Source: Syntrophaceae bacterium
Lineage (GTDB): Bacteria; Desulfobacterota; Syntrophia; Syntrophales; UBA5619
Length of the DNA: 64,000 nt
Assembly (NCBI GenBank): GCA_003141195.1
Contig: PLLC01000106.1
Span: 2,745 to 66,744 of the forward strand
Direction of reading: 5' to 3'
In this document: in pieces, positions 17,743 through 35,590 of the stretch
How positions within the stretch are numbered: the stretch's first letter is position 1
Layout: each line of letters begins with the position of its first letter
Position numbers and translations under genes: made by a program
The notes under the pieces: model-generated
The model's input: the letters and a program-made list of their open reading frames with translations, nothing else
The model's database searches: none
Told to the model about the DNA's origin: nothing

Positions 17743-17943
17743 CAACATTGGATGGGACCGTAGATACCCCAAAAGCACAACCGGGACGGACCGTTGGCGT
17801 TGAACGACGCCGCTTTCGGGAGGGGCTTCCGCCCCGTAGATACGGCCTCCGGGTGCGTAACAACCGGTCGGAGTGCGAAGCCCGTTACGCAGCGCCGCTC
17901 ACCCTTCTTGACTTCCCGACGGGGATTACGGTATGCGTTCCCT

Positions 17944-19437
17944 ATGGAAATTTTCATGCTGACGGCGGTGGGCATCACGGTGTCCGTCGCCCTGATGATC
18001 AATAAGAAGCGGGAGCCACTGCACCTCTCCTTCGCCGCCCTCTGCCTGGCCATCGCCTTCCACAAGGGGGGCGTCTTCTTCAACCCGTTCTTCCATTCCG
18101 GCGCCTGGCTTCTCGTCGAAGGTCTGGGGCTCCTTGCCATCCCCCCCCTCACGATCAAGTTCAGCCGGGACTTCTGTGAGGAGCAGACCCTGCTCCGGAA
18201 GCGGGACGTCCGCAACACGCTCCTGTTCAGCACCGGGTTCGCCGCGGTCCTCTTCACCCCCGTCGCGGGCTGGAAGTACCTGGGGACGTTCATGTACCTC
18301 TACGCGGACGCGGTTTTGCTCCTGTGCTATCTCTCCCTGATTGCCTATGCAAAAAAGAAAGCGGCGGGCGCGGAAAAGAAGCGCATCGTCTACCTCATCA
18401 TCGCCTGCACCGCGGCCATCGCCACCTACAGCATCCCGCCCCTGTTCAACCTGGTCGTCGCCGGCATGCTCTATTTCATCCTGATCATGATCACCCACCC
18501 CCATCTGACGGAGCTCCACGACATCATGACCCGTGCCTTGGTGATCCTGGTCGTCACCCTCTTCACGACCATCGTCTTCTACCTCGTCATCGGCTTCTTC
18601 GGAAAGGGGCCCGCGCCGCCGTTCACGCTCGTCTTCATGGTCTCCTTCCTCATCGTCATCGCCATCGGACCGTTCCAGGTTATCCTGAAACGGCTGCTCA
18701 CGACAATTTACCCCGAGATCAAGGACGTCTTCACCTCGCCCTATGACCTGGACGAGAAGTTGGAGAGGGAAAAGGCGCTCCTTCTGGAGAAGATGGCCCC
18801 CGTCCTCGCCCACGAGATCCGGAACCCCCTCGGTTCGATCAAGGGGGCCGCCCAGGTCCTCCGTTCGGAGGTGGAGGGAGAGGAGCAGCGGAAACTTCTC
18901 GACGTGATCACCGAGGAGGTGAACCGCCTGAACCGGGTTGTCTCGCAGTTTCTCGATTACGCCCGGCCCTACGCGCCGGAGCTCCGCCCGCGACCGATCA
19001 ACGCGGTCATCGAAAAGGCCATGGCCCTCATCGAGGCGGACAGAATTTCGGCCCGTATCCATATCCAGTTGGAGCTCCATCCTCATCTGCCGCCGGTCCC
19101 CATGGATCAGGAACAGATTCACCAGGTGATTCTGAACATCGCCCTCAACGCGATCGAGGCGATGCCGGAGGGCGGCATGCTGACCATCCGGACGTCGCGG
19201 ATCGAAAGCGACGCCGGCGACGCGGTGGGCATTTCCATCCGGGATACGGGTCTGGGAATTCGCCGCGAGGCGCTCAAACAGATCTTCACCCCCTTCTTCA
19301 CGACCAAGGAGCGGGGGGTCGGGCTGGGGCTGGCCGTCTGCCAGCGGATCATCCGGAACCACGGCGGGCGGATCCGGGTGAAGTCGATCCCCGGCCAGGG
19401 GACGATCTTCTACATCCGCCTCGAAACGGTGCGGTAG
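17944..19437 (+). CDS. Sensor histidine kinase with polytopic membrane N-terminal domain
   Basis: ORF 17794..19437, trimmed to the ATG at 17944 (MEIFMLTAVGITVSVAL...). About 7 hydrophobic segments with no large periplasmic loop. H-box LAHEIRNPLGSIKG; ATPase boxes NIALNAIEAM, IRDTGLGI, GVGLGLAVC. Confidence 0.85.
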   Translation: MEIFMLTAVGITVSVALMINKKREPLHLSFAALCLAIAFHKGGVFFNPFFHSGAWLLVEGLGLLAIPPLTIKFSRDFCEEQTLLRKRDVRNTLLFSTGFAAVLFTPVAGWKYLGTFMYLYADAVLLLCYLSLIAYAKKKAAGAEKKRIVYLIIACTAAIATYSIPPLFNLVVAGMLYFILIMITHPHLTELHDIMTRALVILVVTLFTTIVFYLVIGFFGKGPAPPFTLVFMVSFLIVIAIGPFQVILKRLLTTIYPEIKDVFTSPYDLDEKLEREKALLLEKMAPVLAHEIRNPLGSIKGAAQVLRSEVEGEEQRKLLDVITEEVNRLNRVVSQFLDYARPYAPELRPRPINAVIEKAMALIEADRISARIHIQLELHPHLPPVPMDQEQIHQVILNIALNAIEAMPEGGMLTIRTSRIESDAGDAVGISIRDTGLGIRREALKQIFTPFFTTKERGVGLGLAVCQRIIRNHGGRIRVKSIPGQGTIFYIRLETVR

Positions 19438-19481
19438 GAAGACGGAATTTGACGCTCTCGTAAAAAGTCGCAAAAAACATT

Positions 19482-19506
19482 GGGGACAGATTTGAAATCT
19501 GTCCCC
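19482..19506. repeat. 25-nt palindromic element GGGGACAGATTTGAAATCTGTCCCC (copy 4; central base G instead of C)
   Basis: Lies between the HK stop (19437) and the RR start. Followed by a partial extra half-copy, aaatctgttagagctgtccc (19507-19526). Confidence 0.9.
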
Positions 19507-19558
19507 AAATCTGTTAGAGCTGTCCCATCGACTTAAGATATACGAGGGATAGCAGAGA

Positions 19559-20986
19559 ATGGAAATCGCGCGGGAACGAAAGAAAAAGAACGGCACCGGC
19601 ATGAAGGCGGCGAAGATCCTCGTTGTGGACGACGAGCTGAATATGCGATTGGTCCTCAAAGCCATGCTGAAAAAGGAGGGTTATGAGGTGGTCACGGCCG
19701 CGGACGGCCTGGAGGCCCTGAAGATCCTCCGGGAGGAGAAGATCGCCGCCGTCGCCACGGACCTCAAGATGCCGGGGCTCGACGGCATGGGTCTCCTCGA
19801 CCGGATCATGCAGGACGATCCCTCCCTGCCCGTCATCATTCTCACCGCCCATGGCACCGTGGCAAACGCCGTAGACGCCCTGAAGAAGGGGGCCTTCGAT
19901 TACCTCACCAAACCCTTCGAACAGGATGAACTCAAGACGGTCATCCTGAAGGCGGTCAAGACCCGGCAACTCGGCGACCGCGACCTCTCGGCGGCGGCTG
20001 GCGATGCCGATCCCGACCGAATCGTCGGGGAGAGCTGCCGCATGGCCGAGATTCATGAGATCGTCCGGAAGGTCTCCCCCGCGATGACTACCGTACTCAT
20101 CACAGGGGAGACGGGGACGGGCAAGGAGCTGATCGCCCGCGCCATCCACCGGCACAGCGCCCGGAAAGAACAGCCCTTCATCAAGATCAACTGCGCCGCC
20201 ATTGCGGAGAACCTCGTGGAAAGCGAGCTCTTCGGATACGAAAAGGGGGCTTTCACCGGCGCCGTTGCCGCGAAACCGGGGAAGTTCGAGCTGGCCCACC
20301 GGGGAACCCTCTTCCTGGACGAGGTCGGGGAGATCCCGCGGGACATGCAGGCGAAGCTCCTCCAGGCAATCCAGGACCAGAGCTTCGAACGCGTCGGCGG
20401 CCTGAAGACGATCTCGGTGGATGTGCGTCTGATCGCCGCCACGAACCGAAATCTCGTGCAGGAGGTTCGGGAGGGAAAATTCCGTGAGGACTTCTTCTAC
20501 CGCCTGAACGTCTTCCCCATACAGGTCCCGGCGCTCCGGGAGCGGCCCGAGGACATTCTTCCCCTGGCGGACCATTTTCTCACGAAGTTCAACCGGAAGC
20601 TGGGCAGGCAGGTCAATGGTCTCGATCCGGAGGTCCGGGACTGCCTCCTCGCCTACCCTTGGCCGGGGAACATCCGGGAGCTGGAACACCTCATCGAACG
20701 GATGGTTCTGATGGCGGAGGAACCCCTCCTTACGATGGCGCTCGTCCCACCGGAGGTCGCGCAGGCCGCGCGGGAACCCCGCCCGGCAACGTCAGCTCTT
20801 GCGGAAACGTCCGGACGCGACGCGCTGAGAAGCCACATGGAGGAGATGGAAAAACAGATTATCGCCCGCTGCATCGAGGAGTGCGACGGCAACGTCACAC
20901 GAGCGGCCGAGCGGCTGGGGCTGAGCAGGAAGGGCCTCCAGCTCAAGATGATCAAGCACCGACTCCGGAAGCGGGAAGAGGGATAA
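19559..20986 (+). CDS. Sigma-54-dependent response regulator (NtrC family bEBP)
   Basis: Receiver domain (ILVVDDE...TDLKMPGLDG...LTKPF). AAA+ domain with Walker A GETGTGKE and the sigma-54 contact loop GAFTGA (YEKGAFTGAV). C-terminal HTH (NVTRAAERLGLSRKGLQLKM). Alternative start at ATG 19601 (MKAAKILVVDD). Confidence 0.9.
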   Translation: MEIARERKKKNGTGMKAAKILVVDDELNMRLVLKAMLKKEGYEVVTAADGLEALKILREEKIAAVATDLKMPGLDGMGLLDRIMQDDPSLPVIILTAHGTVANAVDALKKGAFDYLTKPFEQDELKTVILKAVKTRQLGDRDLSAAAGDADPDRIVGESCRMAEIHEIVRKVSPAMTTVLITGETGTGKELIARAIHRHSARKEQPFIKINCAAIAENLVESELFGYEKGAFTGAVAAKPGKFELAHRGTLFLDEVGEIPRDMQAKLLQAIQDQSFERVGGLKTISVDVRLIAATNRNLVQEVREGKFREDFFYRLNVFPIQVPALRERPEDILPLADHFLTKFNRKLGRQVNGLDPEVRDCLLAYPWPGNIRELEHLIERMVLMAEEPLLTMALVPPEVAQAAREPRPATSALAETSGRDALRSHMEEMEKQIIARCIEECDGNVTRAAERLGLSRKGLQLKMIKHRLRKREEG

Positions 20987-21266
20987 CATCCTTCCCGGGT
21001 TCGAGAGACGAATACCGTGATGCGGAGGGAGATCCCGGCATTCATCGGCAACCCTCCCTCCCATTGTTAAGAAGAAGGTACGGGCCAGAATGCGCAATGT
21101 AAATTCAAATCGAAAAAATGAAAATGGATCATTTACTTTCCAATATCAACATATTACATGGTGCTTATCTAACTTTAACCGGACAGCCGTGATTGTCAAC
21201 AATAAATTATGACCGTGTAAATCCCCCCGTTTGCTATTTGGACAGGAATGCTGTAAAGATACCCCC

Positions 21267-22682
21267 ATGAAGACGACGCCGGCCGAATATGCGGGAATTT
21301 ACCAGGGGATGGCGCTGATCGCCGATCCCATATACCGGTACGCCTCCTTCACCGTCCCCGCGGGGAACGGCGGCGAAAAAACCGAGAAGGACCTGATCGA
21401 CTCTCCCTGGGTGCAACGTCTCCGGCGGATTTACCAACTCCAGAGCGCCCGCTGGGTTTATCCGGCGGCCGAGCATACACGGTTTCAGCATTCCCTGGGA
21501 ACGATGCACATGGCGGGCGAGTTCGGCCGCCATCTCTACCCGTCCCTGAAGGAGGTCTGTCCGGACGCCCCCTCCCCGAACTGCGTGGAGGAGCTCCTCC
21601 GGGTGGCCGGTCTCCTCCATGACGTGGGTCACGGCCCCTACGGTCACTTCTTCGACGACCATTTTCTCGACGGCTACGGCATCACCCACGAAGACCTCGG
21701 CCGCCTGATCATCTGCCGGAAACTGGGCAGGGTGATCTCCCGGATCCGGCGGAGCCCGTCGGGACCCTTTGCCGAAGGCGAGACGCTGGATCCCGCTCAA
21801 GTGGCCTTCCTGATCCGGATGCCGGAGGAACGAGACGACGGCGCGCCCCGGTGGCTTCAACTGCTCCGCCAGCTCTTCTCGGGCACCTACACCGTCGATA
21901 ATCTGGACTACGTCCAGCGCGACGCCTTCATGACGGGGTTTTCTCTCGATATCGTGGACATCGTCCGGCTTCGCTTCTACACCTTCTTTACAAAGGAAGG
22001 CCTCACGCTTCACCAGGCGGGCGTCTCGGCGCTCAGCCGCTTTTTGAACGCGAGATTGAACCTCTATTCCAACGTTTATTTCCACCGGACGACGCGGGCG
22101 CTCGACCTCCACCTCCAGGAGATCTTCCGGGATACGATGGACATGATCCTGCCCTTGAATCCCGCCGAAGACCTGGATACGTACCTGGATTGCGACGAGT
22201 GGCAGCTCTTCTCGGAGGTCCGGTCGTGGCTGGACAGCGAAGATCCGCAGCGGCAGATGCTTGCGCGGGAGTGGGAAAAACTCCACCGCCGGGAGGTCAA
22301 GTGGAAGATGTCCTTCGCGGCGGAGCTCTCCATCGACCAGCTCCAGAAGGGGACCCGTTTTTCCGGCGCCGGGGATTACGAGGCCCGGATCCGCTCCTTT
22401 CTTCCCGGGGCGCTGAAGAACAAGGTCTTCCGCGTCGATCTGGCGACGCAGGACCCGCGACCGATCAACCCGATGGCGGAGACGGAAAAACGGGTGAACA
22501 TCTTCGACCCCGCGACGGGGACGACCTCCCCCGAGCCCCTCCGGGAGATCTACCGCTTCATCCCGGCCCGGGTTGTCCATCTCCGGGTCTTTTCCCTGAA
22601 CCACGACCACGACGACCTCCTCGCCCGCGCGGCGGAGCGCACCCTCGGCGCCGTGGACGGGGCTTCCCGAACCAACATTTGA
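21267..22682 (+). CDS. HD-domain phosphohydrolase (SAMHD1/dNTP triphosphohydrolase-like, COG1078 type)
   Basis: ORF 21231..22682, trimmed to the ATG at 21267. WVQRLRRIYQLQSARWVYPAAEHTRFQHSLGTMHMA...LLHDVGHGPYGHFFD...YTVDNLDYVQRDAFMTG. Confidence 0.8.
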   Translation: MKTTPAEYAGIYQGMALIADPIYRYASFTVPAGNGGEKTEKDLIDSPWVQRLRRIYQLQSARWVYPAAEHTRFQHSLGTMHMAGEFGRHLYPSLKEVCPDAPSPNCVEELLRVAGLLHDVGHGPYGHFFDDHFLDGYGITHEDLGRLIICRKLGRVISRIRRSPSGPFAEGETLDPAQVAFLIRMPEERDDGAPRWLQLLRQLFSGTYTVDNLDYVQRDAFMTGFSLDIVDIVRLRFYTFFTKEGLTLHQAGVSALSRFLNARLNLYSNVYFHRTTRALDLHLQEIFRDTMDMILPLNPAEDLDTYLDCDEWQLFSEVRSWLDSEDPQRQMLAREWEKLHRREVKWKMSFAAELSIDQLQKGTRFSGAGDYEARIRSFLPGALKNKVFRVDLATQDPRPINPMAETEKRVNIFDPATGTTSPEPLREIYRFIPARVVHLRVFSLNHDHDDLLARAAERTLGAVDGASRTNI

Positions 22683-22690
22683 ACCTGAAT

Positions 22691-24760
22691 ATGGCGACCG
22701 ATCCGGAAACCACCGACATCACGCTTTTCGTCCGGACCTCCGGCGAGGAGGCCGTCCGCTGGAACCGCCGGAGGATCGTCGAGGCCCTGATCCGCGAGAC
22801 GGGGATCGAAGAAGAGACCGCCGAGGCGATCAGCCGGGAGGTGGAAAAACAGATCGTCTCCTCCGGGATCAGCCTCCTCACGACGGCGCTCATCCGGGAA
22901 CTCGTGGATGCAAAGCTGATTGAGAGGGGGTTGGAACAGGCGCGTCGGCTCCACGCCCGCCTCGGTTTCCCCCTCTACGACGTCCGGCAGCTTATCTTCC
23001 ACCAGAACAAGGAAAACGCGAACGTTCCCCACGCCCCCGAGGGGACGAGCCTGGCCCTCGTCGAGGGGATCAAGCGGGAATATGCCCTCCACGACGTCTT
23101 CTCTCGGGAGATCGGAGACGCCCATGTCTCCGGCGATCTTCACCTCCACGGTCTGGGCTACATCGACCGGCCCTACAGCGCCTTCCAGTCGCTCGAGTAT
23201 CTCAAACGGTTCGGCCTGAAGCTCCCCCATTCCGTGACGGTTGCCGGGCCGGCGCGTCATGCGGAGGTCCTCCTTGCCCACATGGTCCGTTTCGGGGCCT
23301 CGCTCCAGGGACATTTCGCCGGCGTGATCGGCTGGGATTCGGTTAACCTCTCCTTCGCTCCCTATCTGACGGGGATGGGGGAGCGGGAGGTCGAGCAGTT
23401 CGCCCAGATGCTGATCTATGAATTTTCCCAGCTCACCTCCGCCCGCGGGGGGCAGGCGATCTTCACCGACATCCATCTTTCCTGGGAGGTCCCCCCTTCT
23501 CTGGCCGAGCTGCCCGTGGTCGGTCCCGGCGGAAGGCCCATCGGCCGGACCTTCCGGGAGTACGGGGAGGAAGCCCGGCGTTTTGCCCGGGCGCTCATGG
23601 CGGTTTACCGTCAGGGAGACGCCACCGAAAAGCCGTTCATCTTTCCGCGGCCGATTCTCCACATCACGAACGAATTCTTCCACACCCCCGGCAACGGGGA
23701 GTTTCTGGAGGAGGTCTGCGGCGTCGCCGCAGCGAAGGGGAATCCCTGCATCGTTCTGGATCGGGAGCAGGGCGCCCGCATCGCCTCCTGCGGCTGCATG
23801 GACCCGGAGGGTGAAGCGACGGGAGGAGGCGAGCCCTGGGAAAGGAGATGCGCGTCGATTCAGAACGTCACCCTCAACCTTCCCCGCCTCGGATACCGGG
23901 CTTGGGAAAGCGACGACGGCAAACTTTTTTCTCTGCTCGACGAGATGATGGGGCTCGCGGCCCAGGCCCACATCCAGAAACGCGGCTTCATCGAAAAACT
24001 GTTCTCCCTGGGCGACGCCGGACCGCTCGCCATGCTGGCGATGCAAAACGACGGGTCGCCCTATCTCGGGATGACGGAAGCGACGTATCTCATCGGGGTG
24101 ACGGGGCTCAACGAACTCGTCCAGATCCGCAAGGGACGGCAGCTTCACGAGTCGGAAGAGGCCCTGGCTTGGGGCCTTTCGGTCATCGGCCATATCCGGA
24201 AGGAGGCCGAAAGGCTCGGCGGTGTCCACGGGATGAAATTGATCCTGGAACAGACCCCCGCAGAGACGACCGCCTACCGTTTTGCCCGTCTCGACCTGAA
24301 GCAGTTCTCCCCGCTGCCGGGCCGTTACGTCCGGGGCGATCTTGCCAAGGGGGAGATCTACTACACCAATTCATCCCATCTGCACCCGGCGGCGCCGGTC
24401 GATCCGCTGACGCGGATCCGGATGGAGGGACGCTTCCACCCCTTCTTCCGGGGGGGAGCCGTAACCCACATCGAGCTGGGGGCCGCCGAGCCCCCGGCGG
24501 GCGTCCTGGCCGCCCTGGTCGTCCGGGCATTTCGCGAGACCCAGAGCAACCAGATCGTCTTTTCCCCCGAGTTCACCTCCTGCGCCGGCTGCGGCGCCAC
24601 CCTGCGGGGACTCTTGGAGAAATGCAGCCATTGCGGTTCCGCCGAGGTGGACGGCCTCGCCCGGATCACCCAGTATATGAGCTGGGTCTCCGGCTGGAAC
24701 CGGGGGAAGCGCGCCGAGCTCCGCGACCGTAACCGCAACAAGGACGCCTTTACCGTCTAA
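22691..24760 (+). CDS. Anaerobic ribonucleoside-triphosphate reductase (class III, NrdD) homolog lacking the glycyl-radical glycine
   Basis: ORF 22190..24760, trimmed to the ATG at 22691 (8 nt after the HD gene stop). N-terminal ATP-cone-like segment (RWNRRRIVEALIRETGI...). VTLNLPRLGY. C-terminal Zn ribbon CAGCG...CSHCGS. Tail ARITQYMSWVSGWNRGKRAELRDR, where canonical proteins have R-I/V-x-G-Y; the Gln codon CAG is at 24671-24673. Confidence 0.8.
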   Translation: MATDPETTDITLFVRTSGEEAVRWNRRRIVEALIRETGIEEETAEAISREVEKQIVSSGISLLTTALIRELVDAKLIERGLEQARRLHARLGFPLYDVRQLIFHQNKENANVPHAPEGTSLALVEGIKREYALHDVFSREIGDAHVSGDLHLHGLGYIDRPYSAFQSLEYLKRFGLKLPHSVTVAGPARHAEVLLAHMVRFGASLQGHFAGVIGWDSVNLSFAPYLTGMGEREVEQFAQMLIYEFSQLTSARGGQAIFTDIHLSWEVPPSLAELPVVGPGGRPIGRTFREYGEEARRFARALMAVYRQGDATEKPFIFPRPILHITNEFFHTPGNGEFLEEVCGVAAAKGNPCIVLDREQGARIASCGCMDPEGEATGGGEPWERRCASIQNVTLNLPRLGYRAWESDDGKLFSLLDEMMGLAAQAHIQKRGFIEKLFSLGDAGPLAMLAMQNDGSPYLGMTEATYLIGVTGLNELVQIRKGRQLHESEEALAWGLSVIGHIRKEAERLGGVHGMKLILEQTPAETTAYRFARLDLKQFSPLPGRYVRGDLAKGEIYYTNSSHLHPAAPVDPLTRIRMEGRFHPFFRGGAVTHIELGAAEPPAGVLAALVVRAFRETQSNQIVFSPEFTSCAGCGATLRGLLEKCSHCGSAEVDGLARITQYMSWVSGWNRGKRAELRDRNRNKDAFTV

Positions 24761-24897: not shown

Positions 24898-26364
24898 TTA
24901 CCGCTTATAATCAAGTCCTTCGAGCTTAAAACCTTTTTCCCGAAATAATCTTAGACAGGCATCTGCTACAGCATCGTCGTAACAGATTCCTCTATTCTTC
25001 TCGATTTCATTCAGAGCTGCATCAATGCCCAGGCCGGGACGATAAGGTCGGTGGGAAGCCATGGCTTCCATCACGTCGGCAACAGCAAGAATTCGGGCCT
25101 CTATGAGAATTTCTTCCCCCTTCAGGTGTCTTGGATAGCCGGACCCATCCATCCGCTCATGGTGCTGATAGACTATCTCCGCCAGCGGCCAGGGCGATTC
25201 CACATCCTTCAGCATCTCGAATCCTTTTTGGGCGTGTTCTTTAATCAATGAAAACTCAAGTTCGGACAGTTTTGTCGGCTTGGACAATATCTCCGCGGGT
25301 ATCGATAATTTCCCAATGTCATGGATGGAACCGGCCATCCGGATGCCCTCGATCTTTTCCGGGGAAAGTCCAATCTCCGTGGCAATGGCACGGGCAAGAT
25401 CCGCGGACCGGATCTGGTGACCGGCGGTGTAAGGATCTCTCGTTTCCACCGCGGACACCATAACCTGAATGGTCGTGTTCACTGCTTTCCTGAGATTTTC
25501 GATGGTACGTAGAAGTTCCTTATCCACCCGCTTGCGCGCCGTGATGTCCTTGCCCTCAGCAAGAATGCCCGTCGCCTTTCCCTGCTCGTCCCTGATGAAC
25601 TGTAATGAGCAGTCAAGCCAGATGGTATGGCCGCCTTTACAGTAGAACTCCAGCTCCCTTGACAGGATGCCATCGGGTTCTGAATTGCGTCCTTCCTTCT
25701 CAAGACGCATTAATTTTCCAAGCCAGTTCACTGCTTTTCCAAGCGACTCAGGTGTCAACTGCCTGTCCAAGGGCAGCGCAGATATTTCGTCCACGCTGAA
25801 TCCCCTTGCTTTCATGGCTGACGGGCTTAACCAGGTAACGTTCAGGTCCAGATCCATCATCCACACAATGTCCGTCATGTGCTCCGCCAGCAGGCTATAC
25901 TGTGCCGCGCTCTCCCCCAGTGCTTCCTCCGCCCGCTTGCGCTCGGTGACATCGCGAACAATGCCCCGGAAACCGGTCGGTTGCCCAACGGAATCCCTCA
26001 TCAGTGCAACTGACGTTTCCACATACAGTTTGCTCCCGTCCTTCTCTATTTGTTCATAATCCACTTTTGATGAGATGCCAGTCCGATAGACCTCATTAAA
26101 ATCACGAAAAATCTTTTTGGCGTTTTCTTTGTCCGTATATAGGCGGTAGTTCATGCCCATCATTTCTTCTTTGCTATAGCCGAGGATTTTAGACATGGAA
26201 GAATTAAAGAAAGTATAATTACCGGCCAAATCCACTTCATAATAGCCTTCTTGGATGTTTTCAAGGATGGTCCAGCCGCTTTCCTCACTCTCCTTTAAAG
26301 CCTGCTCCACCTTTCTGCGCTCTGATTCCGATCGCGCCTGATTTGTCTTGGATTGATCTTTCAT
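24898..26364 (-). CDS. PAS-domain HD-GYP phosphodiesterase (c-di-GMP)
   Basis: ORF 24898..26406, trimmed to the ATG at 26364. PAS repeats, then HD-GYP: GHQIRSADLA...GSIHDIGKLSIP...HHERMDGSGYPRHL. Confidence 0.85.
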   Translation of the reverse strand: MKDQSKTNQARSESERRKVEQALKESEESGWTILENIQEGYYEVDLAGNYTFFNSSMSKILGYSKEEMMGMNYRLYTDKENAKKIFRDFNEVYRTGISSKVDYEQIEKDGSKLYVETSVALMRDSVGQPTGFRGIVRDVTERKRAEEALGESAAQYSLLAEHMTDIVWMMDLDLNVTWLSPSAMKARGFSVDEISALPLDRQLTPESLGKAVNWLGKLMRLEKEGRNSEPDGILSRELEFYCKGGHTIWLDCSLQFIRDEQGKATGILAEGKDITARKRVDKELLRTIENLRKAVNTTIQVMVSAVETRDPYTAGHQIRSADLARAIATEIGLSPEKIEGIRMAGSIHDIGKLSIPAEILSKPTKLSELEFSLIKEHAQKGFEMLKDVESPWPLAEIVYQHHERMDGSGYPRHLKGEEILIEARILAVADVMEAMASHRPYRPGLGIDAALNEIEKNRGICYDDAVADACLRLFREKGFKLEGLDYKR

Positions 26365-26390
26365 CGCGTTGTCCCCTTTGTGATGAGAGG

Positions 26391-28514
26391 TTACGACTCG
26401 GAACAAACCCTGTCTTTTCCGTTCTTCTTTCCCTGGTACATGAGTTGGTCAACCCGGTGAACGAAGGCCTTCATCTCTTCCTGCGGCTTGTACTGCGCAA
26501 TTCCGATGCTCACTGTCACCTGGACGTCTTGACCCGGCGCCGGGGAGAAAGTCTCCTTTTTGAATTCTGTCCGGATTCTTTCCGCTGTAACGGCGCCGTC
26601 CGCGCTTGTTGTCATGGGCAGGAGGATGGTGAATTCTTCGCCGCCATAACGATAAGCGAAATCCGTCTCGCGCAGGCATCTTTTGACCACCTGGCCGAGT
26701 CGCCATAAGACATGGTCTCCCTCGACATGACCGTAGGCGTCGTTGAATGCCTTGAAATTGTCGAGATCAAGAAGGAGGAGGGTTAAAGGCTGTTCATAGC
26801 GGTTCGACCGGTCTAATTCGATTTTAAGCTGAAAGTAAAAATGCCGGGAATTGTAGAGCTGCGTGAGGCCATCGATAATACTGAGTTCTCGGTATTTTTT
26901 TTCACTGTCCCTCAGCGCCTTCTCCACCTTCTTTCGATCGGTGATGTCGCGGACGACACAAATCAACCCCCCATTAGCCGTAGCCGTTAAGGATAGCTCC
27001 TGCGGAAACTTGCCCCCATTTTTTTTCGTACCTATGGTTTCGCCATACCAATCTCCTTTTCGACTAAATTCAGGCATGATTTCTTGCTCAAAGCGTTGAA
27101 GGACATCAGAATCATAGAGAATCCTCCATGACTTTCCAATAAGTTCTCCGGCATCCTCATAACCATAAAGCTTGGCATGCGCTTTGTTTAAGTAGACGTA
27201 TTCCCCTTCTTCATTGAGGAGGGCCATCCCATCGATCGCCGCCTCCATGGCATCGGTTTGTTGTCGGAGTTTTGCCTCCACCCGCTTGCGATCGGTGATG
27301 TCGCGGAAAATCCCAAAAACGTGAGTCTCGCCTCGGTATTTGACAGGCACACCGGTGGACTCAACATGCACCACCTGCGCATCCAGGGCCAAAAGTCGGT
27401 GTTCACGGGGAGGTGCAATCCAGTTTTCATCCAGGGTCTTTTTCACCCGTTCGGTTGATATGGCCAAGTCGTCGGGATGAACCAGGTCTAAGTATCGTTT
27501 TCCAATCAAATCTTCCGGATGATTCGCCCGAAAAAGTTTGAGCGCGGCCGGGTTCGCGTAGATGATAATCTCTTTGGAGCGGAGGAGAACGGCGTCGCTC
27601 GAGGCTTCAACGATTCTGCGGTATCTTTCTTCGCTGTCTTTCAGTTCTTTCTCAATCCGCTTGCGATCGGTGATGTCGCGGGACGCCGCCTGGAAACCGA
27701 CCACATGGCCATTTTCCACGATCAACTGCGTATTTTGCCCAAGCCAGACCTCATGGCCGTCTTTCGCAATAATGGGATATTCGGAATAGGTATTTTGAAT
27801 CCCCTTTACGAACTGACGGCCGAAGAACTTCATGGCTTCCTCACGCATATCCGGGCTGATCAATGTCGGATAATGTATCCCGATAGCCTCGTCTTCCCGG
27901 TATCCAGTAATCCGGAGCGCCACCGAATTTATGAAGGTGAAATGTCCTGTGCTGTCCGTCGTGAAGACGATATCACTCGCATTTTCCACCAAGACCCGAT
28001 ACCGCTCCTCACTCTCCCTCAGCGCCTTCTCCGCCTGCTTGCGCTCGGTAACATCGCGCACATTCATCACAAAACCGGCAACAACCGGATTATCCAGGAG
28101 ATTCTTTCCGAAACCCTCCAGAATGCGTTCGGTGCCATCTTTATGCCTGATACGGAAAGCGTCAGGAATGACGATTTCTTTTGTCAGCAACGCCCTGCCA
28201 AAATCCTCAACGGCTTTCGGCTTATCGTCCGATAGAATCAGATCCAAACTTCTCTTTCCGATCAACTCGTCCGGCTTGTAGCCGAGAAAACGTTCAACGG
28301 AGGGACTCGCATAGGCAATGGTTCCCAGCCCATCCAAGATAAAGATGATATCAGATGAGTTCTGGGTGATCGCATTGAAGTACTCCTCGCTCTTCCGTAG
28401 TGCTCCAGAGGCTCTCTTGCGCTCCGATTCCGACTGTTCAAGTTCCCGGATTCTCTGCTTTAAAAAAGATATCTCTTCGATCAATTCCGCATTTGTCTTG
28501 GCTTGGTCGTTCAT
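26391..28514 (-). CDS. Multi-PAS diguanylate cyclase (GGDEF)
   Basis: 707 aa. Four PAS/PAC-like repeats (recurring DITERK/DITDRKR boundaries), then GGDEF: DLDNFKAFNDAYGHVEGD...RYGGEEFTILL. Confidence 0.9.
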   Translation of the reverse strand: MNDQAKTNAELIEEISFLKQRIRELEQSESERKRASGALRKSEEYFNAITQNSSDIIFILDGLGTIAYASPSVERFLGYKPDELIGKRSLDLILSDDKPKAVEDFGRALLTKEIVIPDAFRIRHKDGTERILEGFGKNLLDNPVVAGFVMNVRDVTERKQAEKALRESEERYRVLVENASDIVFTTDSTGHFTFINSVALRITGYREDEAIGIHYPTLISPDMREEAMKFFGRQFVKGIQNTYSEYPIIAKDGHEVWLGQNTQLIVENGHVVGFQAASRDITDRKRIEKELKDSEERYRRIVEASSDAVLLRSKEIIIYANPAALKLFRANHPEDLIGKRYLDLVHPDDLAISTERVKKTLDENWIAPPREHRLLALDAQVVHVESTGVPVKYRGETHVFGIFRDITDRKRVEAKLRQQTDAMEAAIDGMALLNEEGEYVYLNKAHAKLYGYEDAGELIGKSWRILYDSDVLQRFEQEIMPEFSRKGDWYGETIGTKKNGGKFPQELSLTATANGGLICVVRDITDRKKVEKALRDSEKKYRELSIIDGLTQLYNSRHFYFQLKIELDRSNRYEQPLTLLLLDLDNFKAFNDAYGHVEGDHVLWRLGQVVKRCLRETDFAYRYGGEEFTILLPMTTSADGAVTAERIRTEFKKETFSPAPGQDVQVTVSIGIAQYKPQEEMKAFVHRVDQLMYQGKKNGKDRVCSES

Positions 28515-29412: not shown

Positions 29413-29997
29413 ATGGAAGATTACATCATCAAGATATTCCGGGAGTCGGGCCAGGTCAAGGAGGTTTTCGTCAACGAAAACCTCAACCGGATCGTGGCCG
29501 TGGTCGAGGCGGTTACGACGGCTCTGAAGGCGGGAAACAAGATTCTGCTCTTCGGAAACGGCGGGTCCGCGGCGGACGCCCAGCACCTTGCAGCGGAATT
29601 CGTGAACCGGTTCGTGATCGAGAGGCCGCCCCTTCCCGCCATTGCGCTGACGACGGATACGTCGATCATTACCAGCATCGGGAATGACTACGATTTCGCG
29701 GACATCTTCAGCAGGCAGATCCGGGCCATCGGCCAGAAGGGCGATATTGCCTGGGGAATGAGCACCAGCGGGACCTCCATGAACGTGGTCAAGGGTCTGG
29801 AGGCGGCCAAGAAGATCGGCATGGTCACGATCGGTCTGACCGGACGGGACGGCGGTGATGTTGCGAAGATCGCGGATCACGCCCTGAACGTCTCCTCGAC
29901 CAGCACCCCCCGCATCCAGGAGGTGCACATCACGGTGGGGCACGTGATCTGCGAGATGGTGGATTTCAAGCTCTTTCAGAGACCGGATATGAAATAG
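29413..29997 (+). CDS. gmhA: D-sedoheptulose-7-phosphate isomerase (SIS domain)
   Basis: ORF 29299..29997, trimmed to the ATG at 29413. ILLFGNGGSAADAQHLAAEFVNRF, ALTTDTSIITSIGNDYDF, GMSTSGTSMNV, IGLTGRDGG, QEVHITVGH. Confidence 0.85.
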   Translation: MEDYIIKIFRESGQVKEVFVNENLNRIVAVVEAVTTALKAGNKILLFGNGGSAADAQHLAAEFVNRFVIERPPLPAIALTTDTSIITSIGNDYDFADIFSRQIRAIGQKGDIAWGMSTSGTSMNVVKGLEAAKKIGMVTIGLTGRDGGDVAKIADHALNVSSTSTPRIQEVHITVGHVICEMVDFKLFQRPDMK

Positions 29998-30004
29998 GAG
30001 AGAC

Positions 30005-30640
30005 ATGGTCGCAAAGGTGAAAAAAGATACGGCAGAGGCCAGAGAAGGTCTTCCGAAAAAAACGGGGGAACCGCACGCGGCGGTTGGCGAGACTGTAGCG
30101 GAAGTTCCCGGTAAGACGGATAAGGCAGAAGATCTGATGGTGAAACTTCAGGACGCGGAGAACAAGGCCGCGGAAAATTACGACAAATACGTGCGCGCCG
30201 TTGCCGAACTCGAAAATTATCGGAAACGCGCCGTCCGGGAGAAGGCGGACGCGATTCAATACGGCAACGAGACCCTGCTGCGGGACATCCTGCCGCTGGT
30301 CGACGGCATGGACCGCGCCTTGGAACATGCCTGCAATTCGGAAGACTTCGAGGCCTTCAAAAAGGGGCTCAAGCTGCTTCAAGGGCAGCTCCTGGGTTGT
30401 CTGCAGAAACACGGTGTGGAGATGATCGATACGGCGGGGAAGGATTTCGATCCGCATGTACATGAGGCGATGATGCAGGTGGAGAGCGCCGAACATGAGG
30501 ATAGCCAGGTAGTCGGCGAGTTCGAGCGGGGGTATCTGCTCAACGGCAGGCTGCTCCGGCCGGCGAAGGTATCCGTCTGCAAACGTTCTTCGATGGGCGG
30601 TGATCCGGAAAATAATTGCGAAGAAGCTAAGAATCATTAA
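30005..30640 (+). CDS. grpE: Nucleotide exchange factor GrpE
   Basis: YVRAVAELENYRKRAVREK...LLRDILPLVDGMDRAL...FDPHVHEAMMQVES...VVGEFERGYLLNGRLLRPAKV. Confidence 0.95.
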   Translation: MVAKVKKDTAEAREGLPKKTGEPHAAVGETVAEVPGKTDKAEDLMVKLQDAENKAAENYDKYVRAVAELENYRKRAVREKADAIQYGNETLLRDILPLVDGMDRALEHACNSEDFEAFKKGLKLLQGQLLGCLQKHGVEMIDTAGKDFDPHVHEAMMQVESAEHEDSQVVGEFERGYLLNGRLLRPAKVSVCKRSSMGGDPENNCEEAKNH

Positions 30641-30658: not shown

Positions 30659-32596
30659 ATGGGAAAGATTATCGGAATCGATCTGGGAACAACCAACTCG
30701 TGCGTCGCGGTGATGGAAGGCGGGGACCCCGTCGTGATTGCGAACCAAGAGGGGAATCGGACGACCCCATCGATGGTGGCCTTTACGGAGAGCGGGGAGC
30801 GGCAGGTGGGGCAGGTCGCCAAGCGGCAGGCCGTCACCAACTCGGAGAACACCGTCTATGCGATCAAGCGGCTCATCGGGAGAAAATACAATTCGAAAGA
30901 GGTTCAGTACGACAAAACGGTCAGCCCGTTCAAGATCACCGAGGCCGGAAACGGAGACGCCCAGGTGACGATCCGGGGGCGGAACTACAGCCCGGCGGAG
31001 ATCTCCTCGATGATCCTGACGAAGATGAAGCAGACCGCGGATGATTACCTCGGGGAGAAAATCACCGATGCGGTCATCACGGTGCCCGCCTACTTTAACG
31101 ACTCCCAGCGGCAGGCGACGAAGGACGCCGGCAAGATCGCGGGGCTGAACGTCTTGCGGATCATCAACGAGCCGACGGCGGCGGCCCTGGCCTATGGCCT
31201 GGACAAGAAGAAGGACGAGAAGATCGCCGTCTTCGACCTGGGCGGCGGGACGTTTGACATCTCGATCCTCGAACTGGGCGACGGGGTTTTTGAAGTCAAG
31301 TCCACGAACGGCGACACCCACTTGGGCGGCGAGGATTACGACCAGCGGCTGATCGAGTACCTGGCCACCGAATTCAAGAAGGACCAGGGTATCGACATCC
31401 GGAAGGACAAGATGGCTTTGCAGCGAATCAAGGAGGCGGCGGAGAAGGCGAAGATGGAACTCTCCAGCTCGATGGAGACGGACGTCAACCTGCCCTTCAT
31501 CACGGCCGACGCCTCGGGTCCCAAACACATGAACATCAAGCTGACCCGGGCGAAGCTGGAGGCCCTCGTCGAGGACCTGATCGAAAAGATGGTGCCGCCC
31601 TGCCTGACGGCCCTCCAGGACGCGAAACTCAAGACAAGCGAAATCGACGAGGTAATCCTCGTCGGCGGGATGACCCGGATGCCCCGCGTCCAGCAGAAGG
31701 TGAAGGAGATCTTCGGGAAGGAGCCCAACAGAGGAGTCAACCCGGATGAGGTGGTCGCGGTCGGCGCGGCGATCCAGGGCGGAGTCCTGACCGGCGACGT
31801 GAAGGACGTCCTGCTCCTTGACGTGACGCCGCTTTCCCTCGGCATCGAGACGCTGGGCGGCGTCATGACGAGGCTGATCGAAAAGAACACGACGATTCCG
31901 ACCAAGAAGAGCCAGGTCTTTTCGACGGCGGCCGACAACCAGCCGGCGGTGAGCATCCATGTCCTCCAGGGGGAACGCTCTATGGCGGGCGACAACCGGA
32001 CGCTCGGGCGGTTCGAACTGGTGGGGATCCCCACGGCGCCGCGCGGCGTGCCGCAGATCGAGGTGACCTTCGACATCGACGCGAACGGCATCGTTCACGT
32101 CTCGGCGAAGGATTTGGGGACCGGGAAGGAGCAGAGCATCAAGATCACCGCTTCCAGCGGTCTTTCCGAAGAGGAGATCAGGAAGCTGGTGAAGGATGCC
32201 GACGCCCACGCCGAGGAAGACAAGAAGAAGAAGGAGCTCATCGAGGCGCGGAACCATGCGGACGCAATGGCCTACAGCGTGGAGAAGAACATCAAGGAGT
32301 TCGGGGACAAGATCGACGCCGCCGAGAAGGCGAAGATCGAAGAGGGCATCGCCAAGGTGAAGAAGGCGATCGAGGGCGACGACCTTGAGGCGATCAAGAC
32401 GGCTCAGGAGGAGCTGACCAACGCCTCCCACAAACTGGCGGAGGCGATGTACGCCAAGACCGCGCAGCAGCAGCCGGGTGCGGGCGCCGGTCCCCAACCG
32501 GGTGCGGAAGCCGGTCCGGGCGCAGGTGCGCAGGCGGGCGGCGGCAAGAAGGATGACGACGTGGTCGACGCCGATTTCGAGGATGTGAAGAAGTAA
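30659..32596 (+). CDS. dnaK: Molecular chaperone DnaK (Hsp70)
   Basis: [21 protein letters not shown]..., [26 protein letters not shown]. 645 aa, full length. Confidence 0.98.
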
Positions 32597-32651: not shown

Positions 32652-32753
32652 ATCGACGACGGGTTCCGTATGGTATAAGGGATCATGAAAAAAGGAAGAG
32701 ATTCCTCCCTCAGGGGAGGGTAAAGAGCAGGGGAACTGGAGTAGGCGATCGTG

Positions 32754-33356
32754 ATGAGCCTTTTGCACAGGGTGATGCGATGGATGGCGCCGGCGGCGGT
32801 TCTGCTGATCCTTCTGGTTCTTCCGCCAGCGGGGGACGCCGCGCAACCCGGAGGCAAGGCCGCGGTCACTTCACCGCAGGCGGTTGTGGAGGCGAAACTG
32901 CTCCTGGACCGGGATTACTTCACCGCCCTCCTGGACGGCGTCGATCGCGCCCGATCGGAGATCTTCCTTTCCGCCTACCTGTTCCGGACGATCGAGAATG
33001 CGAAGGGTTATCCCGAGGCGGTTCTGAAACGCCTTCTCGCGGCGGCGAAGCGGGGAGTTCGGGTTGATGTGGTCGTCGAACGGAATCAGGATGCAGACGA
33101 CCTCAACCGGAGCAATGCCGAGACGGCGGAGAGGCTGAAACAGGGTGGAATCCGAGTCTGCATGGACGCCCCGGACCGGGTGATGCACACGAAGCTCGTA
33201 GTGATCGACCGGCGGTACGTCCTGATCGGGAGCCACAACCTGACGCAGTCGGCCCTGAAGTACAACCACGAGGCCTCCGTCTGGATCGATTCGGCCCCAC
33301 TGGCCGAAGAGGCGCTGCTCTATATGAAGTCCCTCTGCCCCGGAGAGTGGAAGTGA
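32754..33356 (+). CDS. Secreted phospholipase D-like / Nuc-family HKD-domain protein
   Basis: Signal-like N-terminus (MRWMAPAAVLLILLVLPPAGDA). Single HKD motif HTKLVVIDRRYVLIGSHNLT. GTG at 32751 or ATG at 32754. Confidence 0.8.
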   Translation: MSLLHRVMRWMAPAAVLLILLVLPPAGDAAQPGGKAAVTSPQAVVEAKLLLDRDYFTALLDGVDRARSEIFLSAYLFRTIENAKGYPEAVLKRLLAAAKRGVRVDVVVERNQDADDLNRSNAETAERLKQGGIRVCMDAPDRVMHTKLVVIDRRYVLIGSHNLTQSALKYNHEASVWIDSAPLAEEALLYMKSLCPGEWK

Positions 33357-33483: not shown

Positions 33484-34281
33484 ATGGCAAAACGTTTTCT
33501 TCTGACCAACGACGACGGAATCTATGCGCGGGGGCTTCTCGCCCTCTATCAGGAGCTCTCCCGGGACGCGGAGTGCCTCATCGTGGCGCCCGAGGTCGAA
33601 CAAAGCGCCGTCGGCCACGCGATCACGATCGCCCGGCCGCTGATGGTCCGGAAGGCCCGGAAGAATGGGTGTTTCCTCGGCTATGCCGTCCTCGGGACGC
33701 CGGCCGACTGCGTCAAGATCGGCCTTGGCGAGCTGGCGGGGGGGCCGGTCGATCTGGTCGTCTCCGGGATTAACCGCGGCGCCAACGTGGGGATCAACAT
33801 CCTCTATTCGGGGACCGTTTCCGCGGCGACGGAGGCGGCGATTCAGGGGGTGCCGTCGCTCGCGATTTCCCTGGATACTCACGAGGAGGCGGACTACACG
33901 ACGGCCGCCCGTTTTGCCCGGAAGATGGCCGCCTTTCTCCTGGAAAACCCCCTGCCGAACGTCGCGCTGAATGTGAACGTCCCGGCGGTCCCGGAAGAGG
34001 AGATCCGGGGCGTCGTGGTCGCGAAACAGGGGCGGGCGCGCCTGATGGAGAGCTTCGACAAGAGGGTCGATCCGCGCGACAACACCTATTACTGGCTGGC
34101 CGGCGAGACGGAGCTCCCCTCGCAGGAGCAGGACGATACGGACGCCAGCACCCTGAAGCGGGGGATGATCACCGTCACCCCGATCTATTACGACCTCACC
34201 CGCCATGACCTCTTGGACGGTCTGAGAACCCGCGTCAAGGAATACTTCCGACCGATTGTAAAAAAGCCATATTTTATATAG
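33484..34281 (+). CDS. surE: 5'/3'-nucleotidase SurE
   Basis: FLLTNDDGIYARGL...VVAPEVEQSAVGHAIT...VVSGINRGANVGINILYSGTVSAATEAA. Confidence 0.93.
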   Translation: MAKRFLLTNDDGIYARGLLALYQELSRDAECLIVAPEVEQSAVGHAITIARPLMVRKARKNGCFLGYAVLGTPADCVKIGLGELAGGPVDLVVSGINRGANVGINILYSGTVSAATEAAIQGVPSLAISLDTHEEADYTTAARFARKMAAFLLENPLPNVALNVNVPAVPEEEIRGVVVAKQGRARLMESFDKRVDPRDNTYYWLAGETELPSQEQDDTDASTLKRGMITVTPIYYDLTRHDLLDGLRTRVKEYFRPIVKKPYFI

Positions 34282-34744: not shown

Positions 34745-35590
34745 ATGGAACAGGGAGAAATCAGGAAGGCCGTCCGGGACGGTTATGGACAGATCGCGAA
34801 GAATTCAGGAAGTTGTTGCCTTCCCGGGGCATCGTGCGACGGCGGTGTCAGTTCGGTGGAAAAAATCAGCCAGGGGATCGGTTACAGCCCGGAGGAGATG
34901 CAGGCCGTTCCGGAAGGGGCGAACCTCGGCCTGGGCTGCGGAAATCCGGTGGCGCTGGCGTCACTGAAAGAGGGGGAAACGGTGGTGGATCTGGGGTCCG
35001 GCGCCGGTTTCGATGCTTTCCTCGCCGCCCGGGCCGTGGGGAAAAGCGGGCGGGTGATCGGCGTGGATATGACGCCCGAGATGCTCGACAAGGCGCGGGG
35101 AAACGCCCGGAAGGGCGACTACGGAAACGTGGAATTCCGTCTGGGGGAAATCGAGAACCTCCCCGTCGCCAACCGGACTGCGGATATCATTATCTCGAAT
35201 TGCGTCATTAACCTCTCCCCCGACAAGGAGCGGGTCTTCAGGGAGGCGTTCCGGGTTCTCAAGCCTGGCGGCAGACTGATGGTCTCGGATATCGTTCTAT
35301 TGAACCGGCTGTCCAATGCGCTGAAAGAATCCATCGAGGCCTATGTCGGCTGCGTTGCCGGCGCTGTGATGAAAGAGGACTACCTTCAGGCGATCCGGGG
35401 GGCCGGTTTCGAGGAAGTGGGGATCATCGACGAAACAACCTTTCCCGTGAAGGAGCTTATCAGTCATCCCGCGGTACAGGAGCACTTCGGGCAGGTGGAT
35501 CAGATGGAGTCGCAGATCGAAGAAATCAGCTCCTCCATCGCCAGCATCAAGGTTTATGCCGTGAAGCCGGCGGCGAACAAAGGGCATTGA
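34745..35590 (+). CDS. arsM: Arsenite S-adenosylmethionine methyltransferase
   Basis: VRDGYGQIAK...SCC..., GLGCGNP, SAM site VVDLGSGAGFD, RVIGVDMTPEML, IISNCVINLSPDK, LKPGGRLMVSD, YVGCVAGA (conserved As-binding Cys positions). Confidence 0.9.
   Translation: MEQGEIRKAVRDGYGQIAKNSGSCCLPGASCDGGVSSVEKISQGIGYSPEEMQAVPEGANLGLGCGNPVALASLKEGETVVDLGSGAGFDAFLAARAVGKSGRVIGVDMTPEMLDKARGNARKGDYGNVEFRLGEIENLPVANRTADIIISNCVINLSPDKERVFREAFRVLKPGGRLMVSDIVLLNRLSNALKESIEAYVGCVAGAVMKEDYLQAIRGAGFEEVGIIDETTFPVKELISHPAVQEHFGQVDQMESQIEEISSSIASIKVYAVKPAANKGH

Follow-up and report, generated by a model that had tools for sequence, protein, structure and literature searches.

Two co-oriented open reading frames (ORFs) fill positions 21267-24760 (+) of the window, i.e., of the whole 64,000-nucleotide (nt) stretch of a Syntrophaceae bacterium analyzed here (GenBank assembly GCA_003141195.1, contig PLLC01000106.1). 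The first encodes an HD-domain protein and the second a member of the NrdD family of class III ribonucleotide reductases (RNRs). The latter, a radical-dead protein encoded at window 22691-24760, is referred to as NrdD*. Most likely, the locus holds a class III RNR turned pseudoenzyme together with a conserved deoxyribonucleoside triphosphate (dNTP) hydrolase-like partner, the function being inferred. A longer candidate, an 856-aa (amino acid) ORF starting from TTG 22190, overlaps the HD gene and was rejected as a GC-rich read-through artefact. An earlier note on this DNA had described a NrdD homolog with glutamine in place of the radical glycine, a SAMHD1-like HD gene 8 nt upstream on the same strand, an ATP-cone-like N-terminus, and a C-terminal CxxC...CxxC zinc ribbon. 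The first of these is borne out by family profiles and by alignments to the enzymes of Prevotella copri, Thermotoga maritima, and Escherichia coli, the second by the coordinates and by PDB and Pfam matches, and the last by four invariant cysteines. The ATP-cone stands in part: a similar region is present, but its profile match is sub-threshold (22 bits vs the Pfam cut-off of 25.8).

The Pfam NRDD profile covers residues 108-681 of NrdD* (profile positions 1-560 of 562, E-value 1.9e-122), and TIGR02487 matches the protein with 355 bits, above its cut-off of 326. In an AlphaFold2 model built from 57 homologs (predicted template modeling score, pTM, 0.75), the top 36 PDB fold matches are all NrdD structures, with template modeling (TM) scores of 0.6-0.72; NrdD* thus possesses both the NrdD sequence family signature and the 10-stranded barrel fold of class III RNRs. 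Helices are modeled at residues 26-88, and the ATP-cone is already equally degenerate in the active sister P0121. Several functional motifs are retained (Table 1), including the NxN flap, which takes part in substrate binding (PMC11226230), the EQTPAE and YYTNS motifs, and the zinc ribbon. The C-terminal tail keeps its R-I-T-x-Y...WNxGK layout together with the tyrosine that follows the old glycine site. Roles of the motifs (NxN, HxHD, the phosphate loop, and others) are taken from structural papers on the P. copri and T. maritima enzymes (PMC11226230, PMC4493059).

Table 1. Coordinates of the features at and around the HD-nrdD* locus (window positions)
Feature	Position	Strand	Remarks
Promoter-like motif TTGCTA-17 nt-TAAAGA	21231..21259	+	predicted; its end is 7 nt upstream of the HD start codon
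HD-domain gene	21267..22682	+	ATG 21267, TGA 22680-22682; 471 aa
HD motif RFQHSLG	21480-21500	+	metal/catalytic
HD motif LLHDVGHGP	21612-21638	+	metal/catalytic
HD motif DNLDYVQRD	21897-21923	+	metal/catalytic
Spacer, HD stop to NrdD* start codon	22683..22690	+	8 nt
NrdD* gene	22691..24760	+	ATG 22691, TAA 24758-24760; 689 aa; radical-dead class III RNR paralog
Degenerate ATP-cone-like four-helix region	22730..22936	+	residues 14-82; VRTSG replacing VKRDG
NxN flap motif N109-A-N111	23015..23023	+	retained; alignment
HLHG, remnant of triphosphate-binding HxHD	23141..23152	+	Asp replaced by Gly
Ser163 at the beta-A cysteine position	23177..23179	+	E. coli C175, T. maritima C125; alignment
Ex-finger loop GARIASCGCMDPEGEATGGGEPWERR	23771..23848	+	stands where the S-x-CCRL thiyl-radical motif was
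EQTPAE loop	24248..24265	+	phosphate-binding loop and helix N-terminus; retained; alignment
YYTNS motif	24359..24373	+	retained; alignment
Zn-ribbon CxxC...CxxC	24581..24634	+	C631, C634, C645, C648; invariant
RITQY, ex-glycyl-radical motif	24662..24676	+	Gln661 at the radical Gly position
PAS-HD-GYP gene	24898-26406	-	c-di-GMP signaling
4xPAS-GGDEF gene	26391-28514	-	c-di-GMP signaling
gmhA/diaA-like SIS_2 gene	29413-29994		conserved downstream block
grpE	30005-30640		conserved downstream block
dnaK	30659-32596		conserved downstream block
surE, 5'/3'-nucleotidase	33484-34281		conserved downstream block

Catalytic residues of NrdD*

The radical-dead clade was aligned with 19 canonical NrdDs, ranging from the E. 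coli enzyme to the closest glycine-bearing sisters, P0121 and P0401 (55% identity). Among the 58 positions regarded as universal for NrdD (at least 85% conserved in the 19 canonical enzymes), 51 are kept in the clade. The seven that are lost correspond to E. coli C175, to P381, C384, and R385 of the finger-loop motif S-x-C-R, to G681, to one tyrosine replaced by cysteine, and to one conservative lysine to arginine change.

At the radical site, Gln661 of NrdD* aligns with the radical glycine of P. copri (RITGY), T. maritima (RIVGY), and E. coli NrdD (G681). Its codon is CAG (24671-24673), so that the tail reads ARITQY and the radical-glycine motif R-[IV]-x-G-Y is missing. A true glycine motif elsewhere in the tail would have overturned the pseudoenzyme reading of the earlier note; none is present in NrdD*, and the other tail glycines (VSGWNRGK) occur in canonical enzymes too. 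Homologs carrying glutamine at this site, which the note had proposed to look for, are plentiful: the 120 closest database homologs have Q (94), R (16), N (4), H (2), or L (1) there, the rest being truncated, and glycine in none. Identities range over 63-97%, and the proteins stem from a large number of separate assemblies, chiefly metagenome-assembled genomes of Syntrophales or 'Deltaproteobacteria'. A sequencing error, already deemed unlikely in the note, or a misaligned glycine is rejected on the grounds that glycine is absent from all 120 homologs and that three independent alignments agree.

The second loss concerns the finger loop, whose deviation had also been noticed before. The IASCGCMD stretch indeed aligns with it, placing G368 and C369 of NrdD* opposite C384 and R385 of the E. 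coli enzyme. Finger-loop motifs of class III enzymes fall into the MGCR, MCCR, and SCCR types (PMC9669993), and the sister enzymes of NrdD* carry S[EQ]CCRL. In the clade, the loop is hypervariable in both sequence and length (SCGCMD, PGAGFA, PGGRTD, TGPKFA, or deleted); the thiyl-cysteine column holds G, C, a gap, F, or R, and the thiyl-radical cysteine is therefore not a conserved feature of these proteins. In the model of NrdD*, the predicted local distance difference test (pLDDT) value falls below 50 at residues 368-379 of this loop and at the former glycine loop.

Another replaced residue is the beta-A cysteine, which is published as conserved in all known RNRs. It is present in 19/19 canonical enzymes and is lacking in NrdD*; the 70 dead-clade proteins have S (61), G (4), N (3), or A (2) at this position. 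Only in the dead clade does G or S stand in place of the aspartate of the HxHD motif; the HxH part of the motif and the NxN flap are kept there. With both the thiyl-radical cysteine and the reducing cysteine gone, the radical chemistry shared by every class of RNR is, as judged from the established mechanism, out of reach of NrdD*, no matter where the radical would come from.

The protein is nevertheless maintained. Among GTDB species, each represented by one genome, a scan detected 346 relatives; the top 80 were examined, and all of these belong to Syntrophaceae, Smithellaceae, or other Syntrophales. NrdD* identity across the order is 58-86%, and the ORFs of the 80 species read through except in two cases: at locus L055, the tail contains ambiguous bases (X) and then diverges from the family, and at L029, the gene ends at the contig edge. 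Nei-Gojobori ratios of nonsynonymous to synonymous substitution rates (dN/dS) amount to 0.03-0.20 for NrdD* (24 pairwise comparisons), near those of the HD gene (0.05-0.16), which indicates that NrdD* is functional and under purifying selection. This contradicts the view of NrdD* as a functionless relic on its way to a pseudogene, which is hardly credible, even though catalytic residues disappear one after another within the clade, given the intact ORFs, the order-wide identity, and the retained universal positions.

The absence of an activase from the window, likewise stated in the earlier note, is confirmed: neither phmmer searches with E. coli and Syntrophales NrdG nor a scan for credible CX3CX2C ORFs found an NrdG in the 64 kilobases (kb). 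No nrdG adjoins nrdD* in the 80 loci; NrdG is seen in L047 and L049 only, beside a separate canonical nrdD. These two canonical nrdD-nrdG pairs lie on the same contig as HD-nrdD*, on the opposite strand and 2-4 kb away (L047 5742-8527, L049 8946-11758), and their NrdD has a true ATP-cone, SVYC, MCCRL, and RVVGY, followed by an NrdG with CNFRCPYC. Canonical nrdDG pairs are widespread in Syntrophales and Smithella (81-94% identity), and co-occurrence with nrdD* in the same genome is established for L047 and L049 alone. The suggestion that a canonical RNR should be sought elsewhere in the genome thus finds a partial answer, positive for these two relatives. A phmmer search with E. coli NrdA and NrdB, run on the ORFs from both the window and the 80 loci, gave no match; for NrdJ the sensitivity was limited. 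As a separate observation, a gene with GAF and HD-GYP (HD_5) domains follows the canonical nrdD-nrdG in Smithella/Syntrophales loci L085, L087, L090, and L091, and may constitute a c-di-GMP or nucleotide-signaling link to the real RNR operon.

The HD partner, its linkage, and the origin of the clade

The HD protein matches Pfam HD (2.8e-11) and HD_assoc_2, and its PDB matches include 2Q14 (4e-26), 2HEK (4e-25), EF1143 (9e-23), and SAMHD1 (about 1e-15). The catalytic H...HD...D motifs are intact and at least 95% conserved among 61 orthologs. The structures nearest to it are those of dNTPases, and it is regarded as a putative SAMHD1/EF1143-type dNTP triphosphohydrolase-like protein. It shares with the SAMHD1/EF1143/Aq_1910-type dNTPases the HD fold, the intact motifs, and the HD-associated region, but has no SAM domain; besides, its gene stands in an operon with a dead RNR homolog, an arrangement not found described for these enzymes. 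Identity as a Dgt-type or anti-phage dGTPase was rejected, the scores being well below the family cut-offs (NF002205, 28.7 of 439 bits; antiphage_dGTPase, 16.6 of 400 bits). The PADLOC dGTPase match (24.9 bits) covers the HD motif alone.

Conservation of the HD linkage, another point raised for checking in the earlier note, holds widely. Of 76 informative loci, 72 have the HD gene directly upstream of nrdD* in the same orientation; in the remaining four of the 80, the upstream sequence is too short to judge. The estimated spacer is at most 20 nt, or the genes overlap, in 46 of the 72. An alignment of upstream regions shows the motif TTG[AC]TATTT-N7-GAATATTGTA preceding the HD ATG by 10-12 nt in the majority of 59 Syntrophales loci, and this conserved promoter-like motif is found before HD only, not before nrdD*. 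A generic promoter and terminator scan was uninformative on the + strand and did not call the motif at 21231-21259. Judging from these arrangements, HD and nrdD* are apparently co-transcribed. The spacing of the motif would put the start of transcription at the HD ATG, which suggests that the HD mRNA is leaderless or near-leaderless.

In a neighbor-joining tree, which gives an approximate evolutionary picture, the HD-linked clade branches beside the SCCR-type (double-cysteine) enzymes, such as those of Neisseria bacilliformis and T. maritima. NrdD* shares with them the full-length fold and domain order as well as the NxN flap, HxH, EQTPAE, YYTNS, the zinc ribbon, and the R-I-T-x-Y...WNxGK tail, the closest active relatives being P0121 and P0401. 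It differs in that the radical glycine, the thiyl-cysteine motif, the beta-A cysteine, and the HxHD aspartate are replaced. The nrdD* gene is HD-linked without an adjacent nrdG, whereas the closest glycine-bearing sister, P0401, lacks an HD neighbor and has nrdG, the gene of the radical-SAM activase, two genes downstream.

Basal members of the clade retain parts of the catalytic set. The most complete is L064 (10001-12040, Syntrophales bacterium SMAG_U15191), which keeps RPYC, CCRL, RVGGY, and HxHD and is HD-linked with no adjacent nrdG. L073 has lost the beta-A cysteine, L058-61 and L065 carry CLSL in the finger loop, and L069 and L072 combine CGRL with ITGY; the remaining members have Q, K, R, N, or L at the old glycine site. 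As read from these sequences, the basal members present a stepwise decay of the catalytic residues, mostly in the HD context; those that still have some or all of the catalytic residues could be active enzymes, or they could mark the onset of decay. The clade thereby offers a natural series, from the full catalytic triad to its complete loss, for the study of how a radical enzyme becomes a pseudoenzyme. In the glycine-retaining L064 group, a different motif is found upstream of HD.

The wider neighborhood of nrdD* is a housekeeping one. A SIS_2 gene (gmhA/diaA-like), grpE, dnaK, and surE lie downstream of nrdD* in 52 of 70 loci. SIS_2 directly follows in most relatives, while two c-di-GMP genes on the - strand (24898-28514) intervene between nrdD* and the SIS gene in the window.

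Possible functions of NrdD*

The reading favored here, with a probability of roughly 0.5, is that NrdD* is a radical-dead SCCR-type NrdD paralog serving as a non-catalytic nucleotide-binding partner in the control of the dNTP pool. A canonical enzyme would make the dNTPs of the organism. NrdD* would still bind nucleotides at the old active site, the specificity site, or both, and would contribute to dNTP-pool control as a sensor or regulator that performs no catalysis itself. The most plausible version is that it would modulate or cooperate with the co-expressed SAMHD1/EF1143-like dNTP triphosphohydrolase. That the protein is a glycyl-radical-dead pseudoenzyme had been among the options of the earlier note, and it gains support from the further cysteine and aspartate losses, the purifying selection, and the HD linkage in the great majority of informative loci.

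Herpesviruses encode inactive homologs of the class I RNR large subunit (M45/UL45), which are kept for a role other than nucleotide reduction. The Epstein-Barr virus protein BORF2, an RNR homolog that regulates another enzyme, is also mentioned in the literature (PMC9669993). As RNR catalytic-subunit homologs in a non-reductase role, these proteins constitute the nearest conceptual precedent for NrdD*; they are, however, class I and viral, and their partners are host cell-death and APOBEC proteins.

Several points weigh against this reading. Nucleotide binding by NrdD* and its interaction with the HD protein are both predictions, and the loss of the HxHD aspartate could weaken the binding of nucleoside triphosphates (NTPs), as far as the motif allows a prediction. 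The linkage is imperfect: HD is not found upstream within 2-10 kb in L007, L048, L068, and L069, and in a few lineages 0.7-9 kb separate HD and nrdD* (2-9 kb in L002, L003, L055, L042, and L038). All 80 loci come from a single taxonomic order, Syntrophales, and common ancestry could account for part of the adjacency; no HD-NrdD fusion occurs among the 420 retrieved proteins. Five inspected dead-NrdD loci outside the HD-linked clade have neither HD nor nrdG nearby, and for the organism of the window itself the canonical RNR is a presumed one. As a side observation, the HD and nrdD* genes of L002/L003 (1058-9327) are split by a two-partner-secretion cassette of about 9 kb, encoding a TPS exoprotein and a ShlB transporter, which is also found in L055.

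A wider proposal is possible and is offered tentatively: radical-dead NrdDs may constitute a large unrecognized family of nucleotide-sensing pseudoenzymes, comprising the HD-linked clade, stand-alone lineages, and an ATP-cone group without the glycyl-radical domain, with the Syntrophales member physically controlling the SAMHD1-like dNTPase. Related branches of the tree do hold further dead lineages (P0134, P0139, P0143, P0149, and P0150). In the ATP-cone group (about 40 of 150 representatives, e.g., P0156, P0181, P0194, and locus L097), proteins of 740-775 aa carry a genuine N-terminal ATP-cone and lack the C-terminal zinc-ribbon/glycyl-radical domain, the beta-A cysteine, and the finger-loop cysteine.

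Should nucleotide sensing by a dead RNR turn out to serve a SAMHD1-like dNTPase, the pair would represent a new mode of bacterial dNTP-pool control: a homeostat composed of an RNR-fold allosteric sensor and a dNTP hydrolase, in which RNR allostery is repurposed for the destruction of dNTPs, not their synthesis. It would also give the class III RNR scaffold its first non-catalytic role, to our knowledge. No description of glycine-less NrdD homologs or of an HD-NrdD pairing was found in the literature searchable in full text, including recent RNR phylogeny papers, a 2026 review of glycyl-radical enzymes, and the paper on aminoacyl radical enzymes (PMC11528403). In public databases, proteins of the NrdD* type are annotated as anaerobic ribonucleoside-triphosphate reductase (TIGR02487 scores above its cut-off), and because of this annotation, metabolic reconstructions of Syntrophales and related anaerobes count an RNR that is incapable of the canonical glycyl/thiyl mechanism.

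The main rival to the dNTP-pool reading, a doubtful but serious one, assigns NrdD* an autonomous, non-catalytic function unrelated to HD, for instance in nucleotide-responsive regulation or in partnership with a different protein, the SIS protein being one candidate; the HD adjacency would then be lineage-specific synteny. It ranks first among the alternatives because dead NrdDs occur elsewhere without HD: given the five outside lineages with no HD neighbor, a dead NrdD may well function independently. The locus also tolerates insertions that part HD from nrdD*, SIS_2 follows NrdD* in the 52 loci mentioned above, and a SIS_2 gene (L095 7941-8531) overlaps the end of P0139, a dead NrdD in an unrelated context, hinting at a possible NrdD*-SIS link. 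On the other hand, the very short or overlapping junctions and the promoter-like motif confined to the front of HD tie nrdD* to its upstream neighbor. The SIS-grpE-dnaK block amounts to ordinary housekeeping synteny, and in the window two genes separate SIS from nrdD*.

It is unlikely that NrdD* has instead gained a new, non-radical activity on nucleotides in the retained pocket, perhaps acting on what the HD enzyme consumes or releases. The strong conservation of the substrate-pocket elements, with changes restricted to redox and radical residues, would fit such an activity, as would a purifying selection comparable to that on an enzyme and the preference for Gln or Lys/Arg at the old glycine site. 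Yet no new invariant cluster of polar or catalytic residues was identified in NrdD*, the loop at the center of the barrel is hypervariable and predicted to be disordered, and the old glycine site is occupied by different residues from protein to protein (Q, K, R, N, H, L).

Still less probable is an anti-phage role, an option raised in the earlier note and now disfavored, in which HD and NrdD* would form a dNTP-depletion module, NrdD* sensing phage-induced nucleotide changes and turning on the dNTPase. A dNTPase with an accessory regulator has a precedent in defense: in Clover, the dNTPase CloA is paired with the accessory regulator CloB and acts against phages (PMC12265719). Like HD-NrdD*, Clover and the defense dGTPases involve a two-gene unit in which a dNTPase is joined by an accessory protein potentially able to control the enzyme; in Clover, however, the accessory protein is a nucleotidyltransferase and the genes reside in defense islands, whereas here a dead RNR occupies a vertically inherited housekeeping locus. 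The HD protein does match anti-phage dGTPase models, but at about 17-25 bits, far below the cut-offs, and no PADLOC model matches NrdD*. The order-wide, vertical conservation also contrasts with a patchy occurrence in defense islands. No relatives were found among the IMG/VR viral contigs, which likewise leaves a phage origin of NrdD* unsupported.

The last option of the earlier note, an RNR whose radical sits elsewhere or is supplied differently, for example as a C-alpha radical on the glutamine or through an HD-supplied cofactor, is very improbable. Pyruvate formate-lyase (PFL)-type aminoacyl radical enzymes with Ala, Ser, or Thr at the glycine site are active, having a catalytic cysteine and a dedicated activase; NrdD was just an outgroup in that study (PMC11528403). 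The likeness to NrdD* lies in a glycyl-radical-enzyme homolog whose radical glycine is naturally replaced. It ends there, as those small residues are one mutation away from glycine, while NrdD* and its relatives have bulky and variable ones, and NrdD* has no catalytic cysteine and no activase gene beside it. Most substrate-binding motifs are retained, and the basal L064 keeps the full triad beside HD; against this stand the loss of both the thiyl-radical and the beta-A cysteine, the hypervariable finger loop, the wide variation at the glycine site, the lack of an adjacent activase, and the canonical nrdDG on the same contig in two genomes.

Surrounding genes and other NrdD proteins

Directly upstream of the operon, on the same strand, lie genes for an AtoS/ZraS-like histidine kinase and a sigma-54-dependent response regulator (17794-20986). 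This two-component pair probably does not regulate the HD-nrdD* operon, because it is not kept beside the operon in relatives (e.g., L001). Searches of the window for NrdR boxes, Rfam families, and tRNAs found none. In the downstream region, a PLD-like ORF (32751-33356) between dnaK and surE bears a weak likeness to DISARM DrmC (75 bits vs a cut-off of 133), and a gene of the arsenite-methyltransferase family (34745-35590) comes after surE.

Among the proteins outside the HD-linked clade, P0156 of the ATP-cone group has a PRK/uridine-kinase-like gene next to it. Of the 150 closest representative NrdD clusters, 53 (e.g., P0123-P0133) are at least 1000 aa long and match in two to four separate stretches, which is consistent with inteins in canonical relatives.

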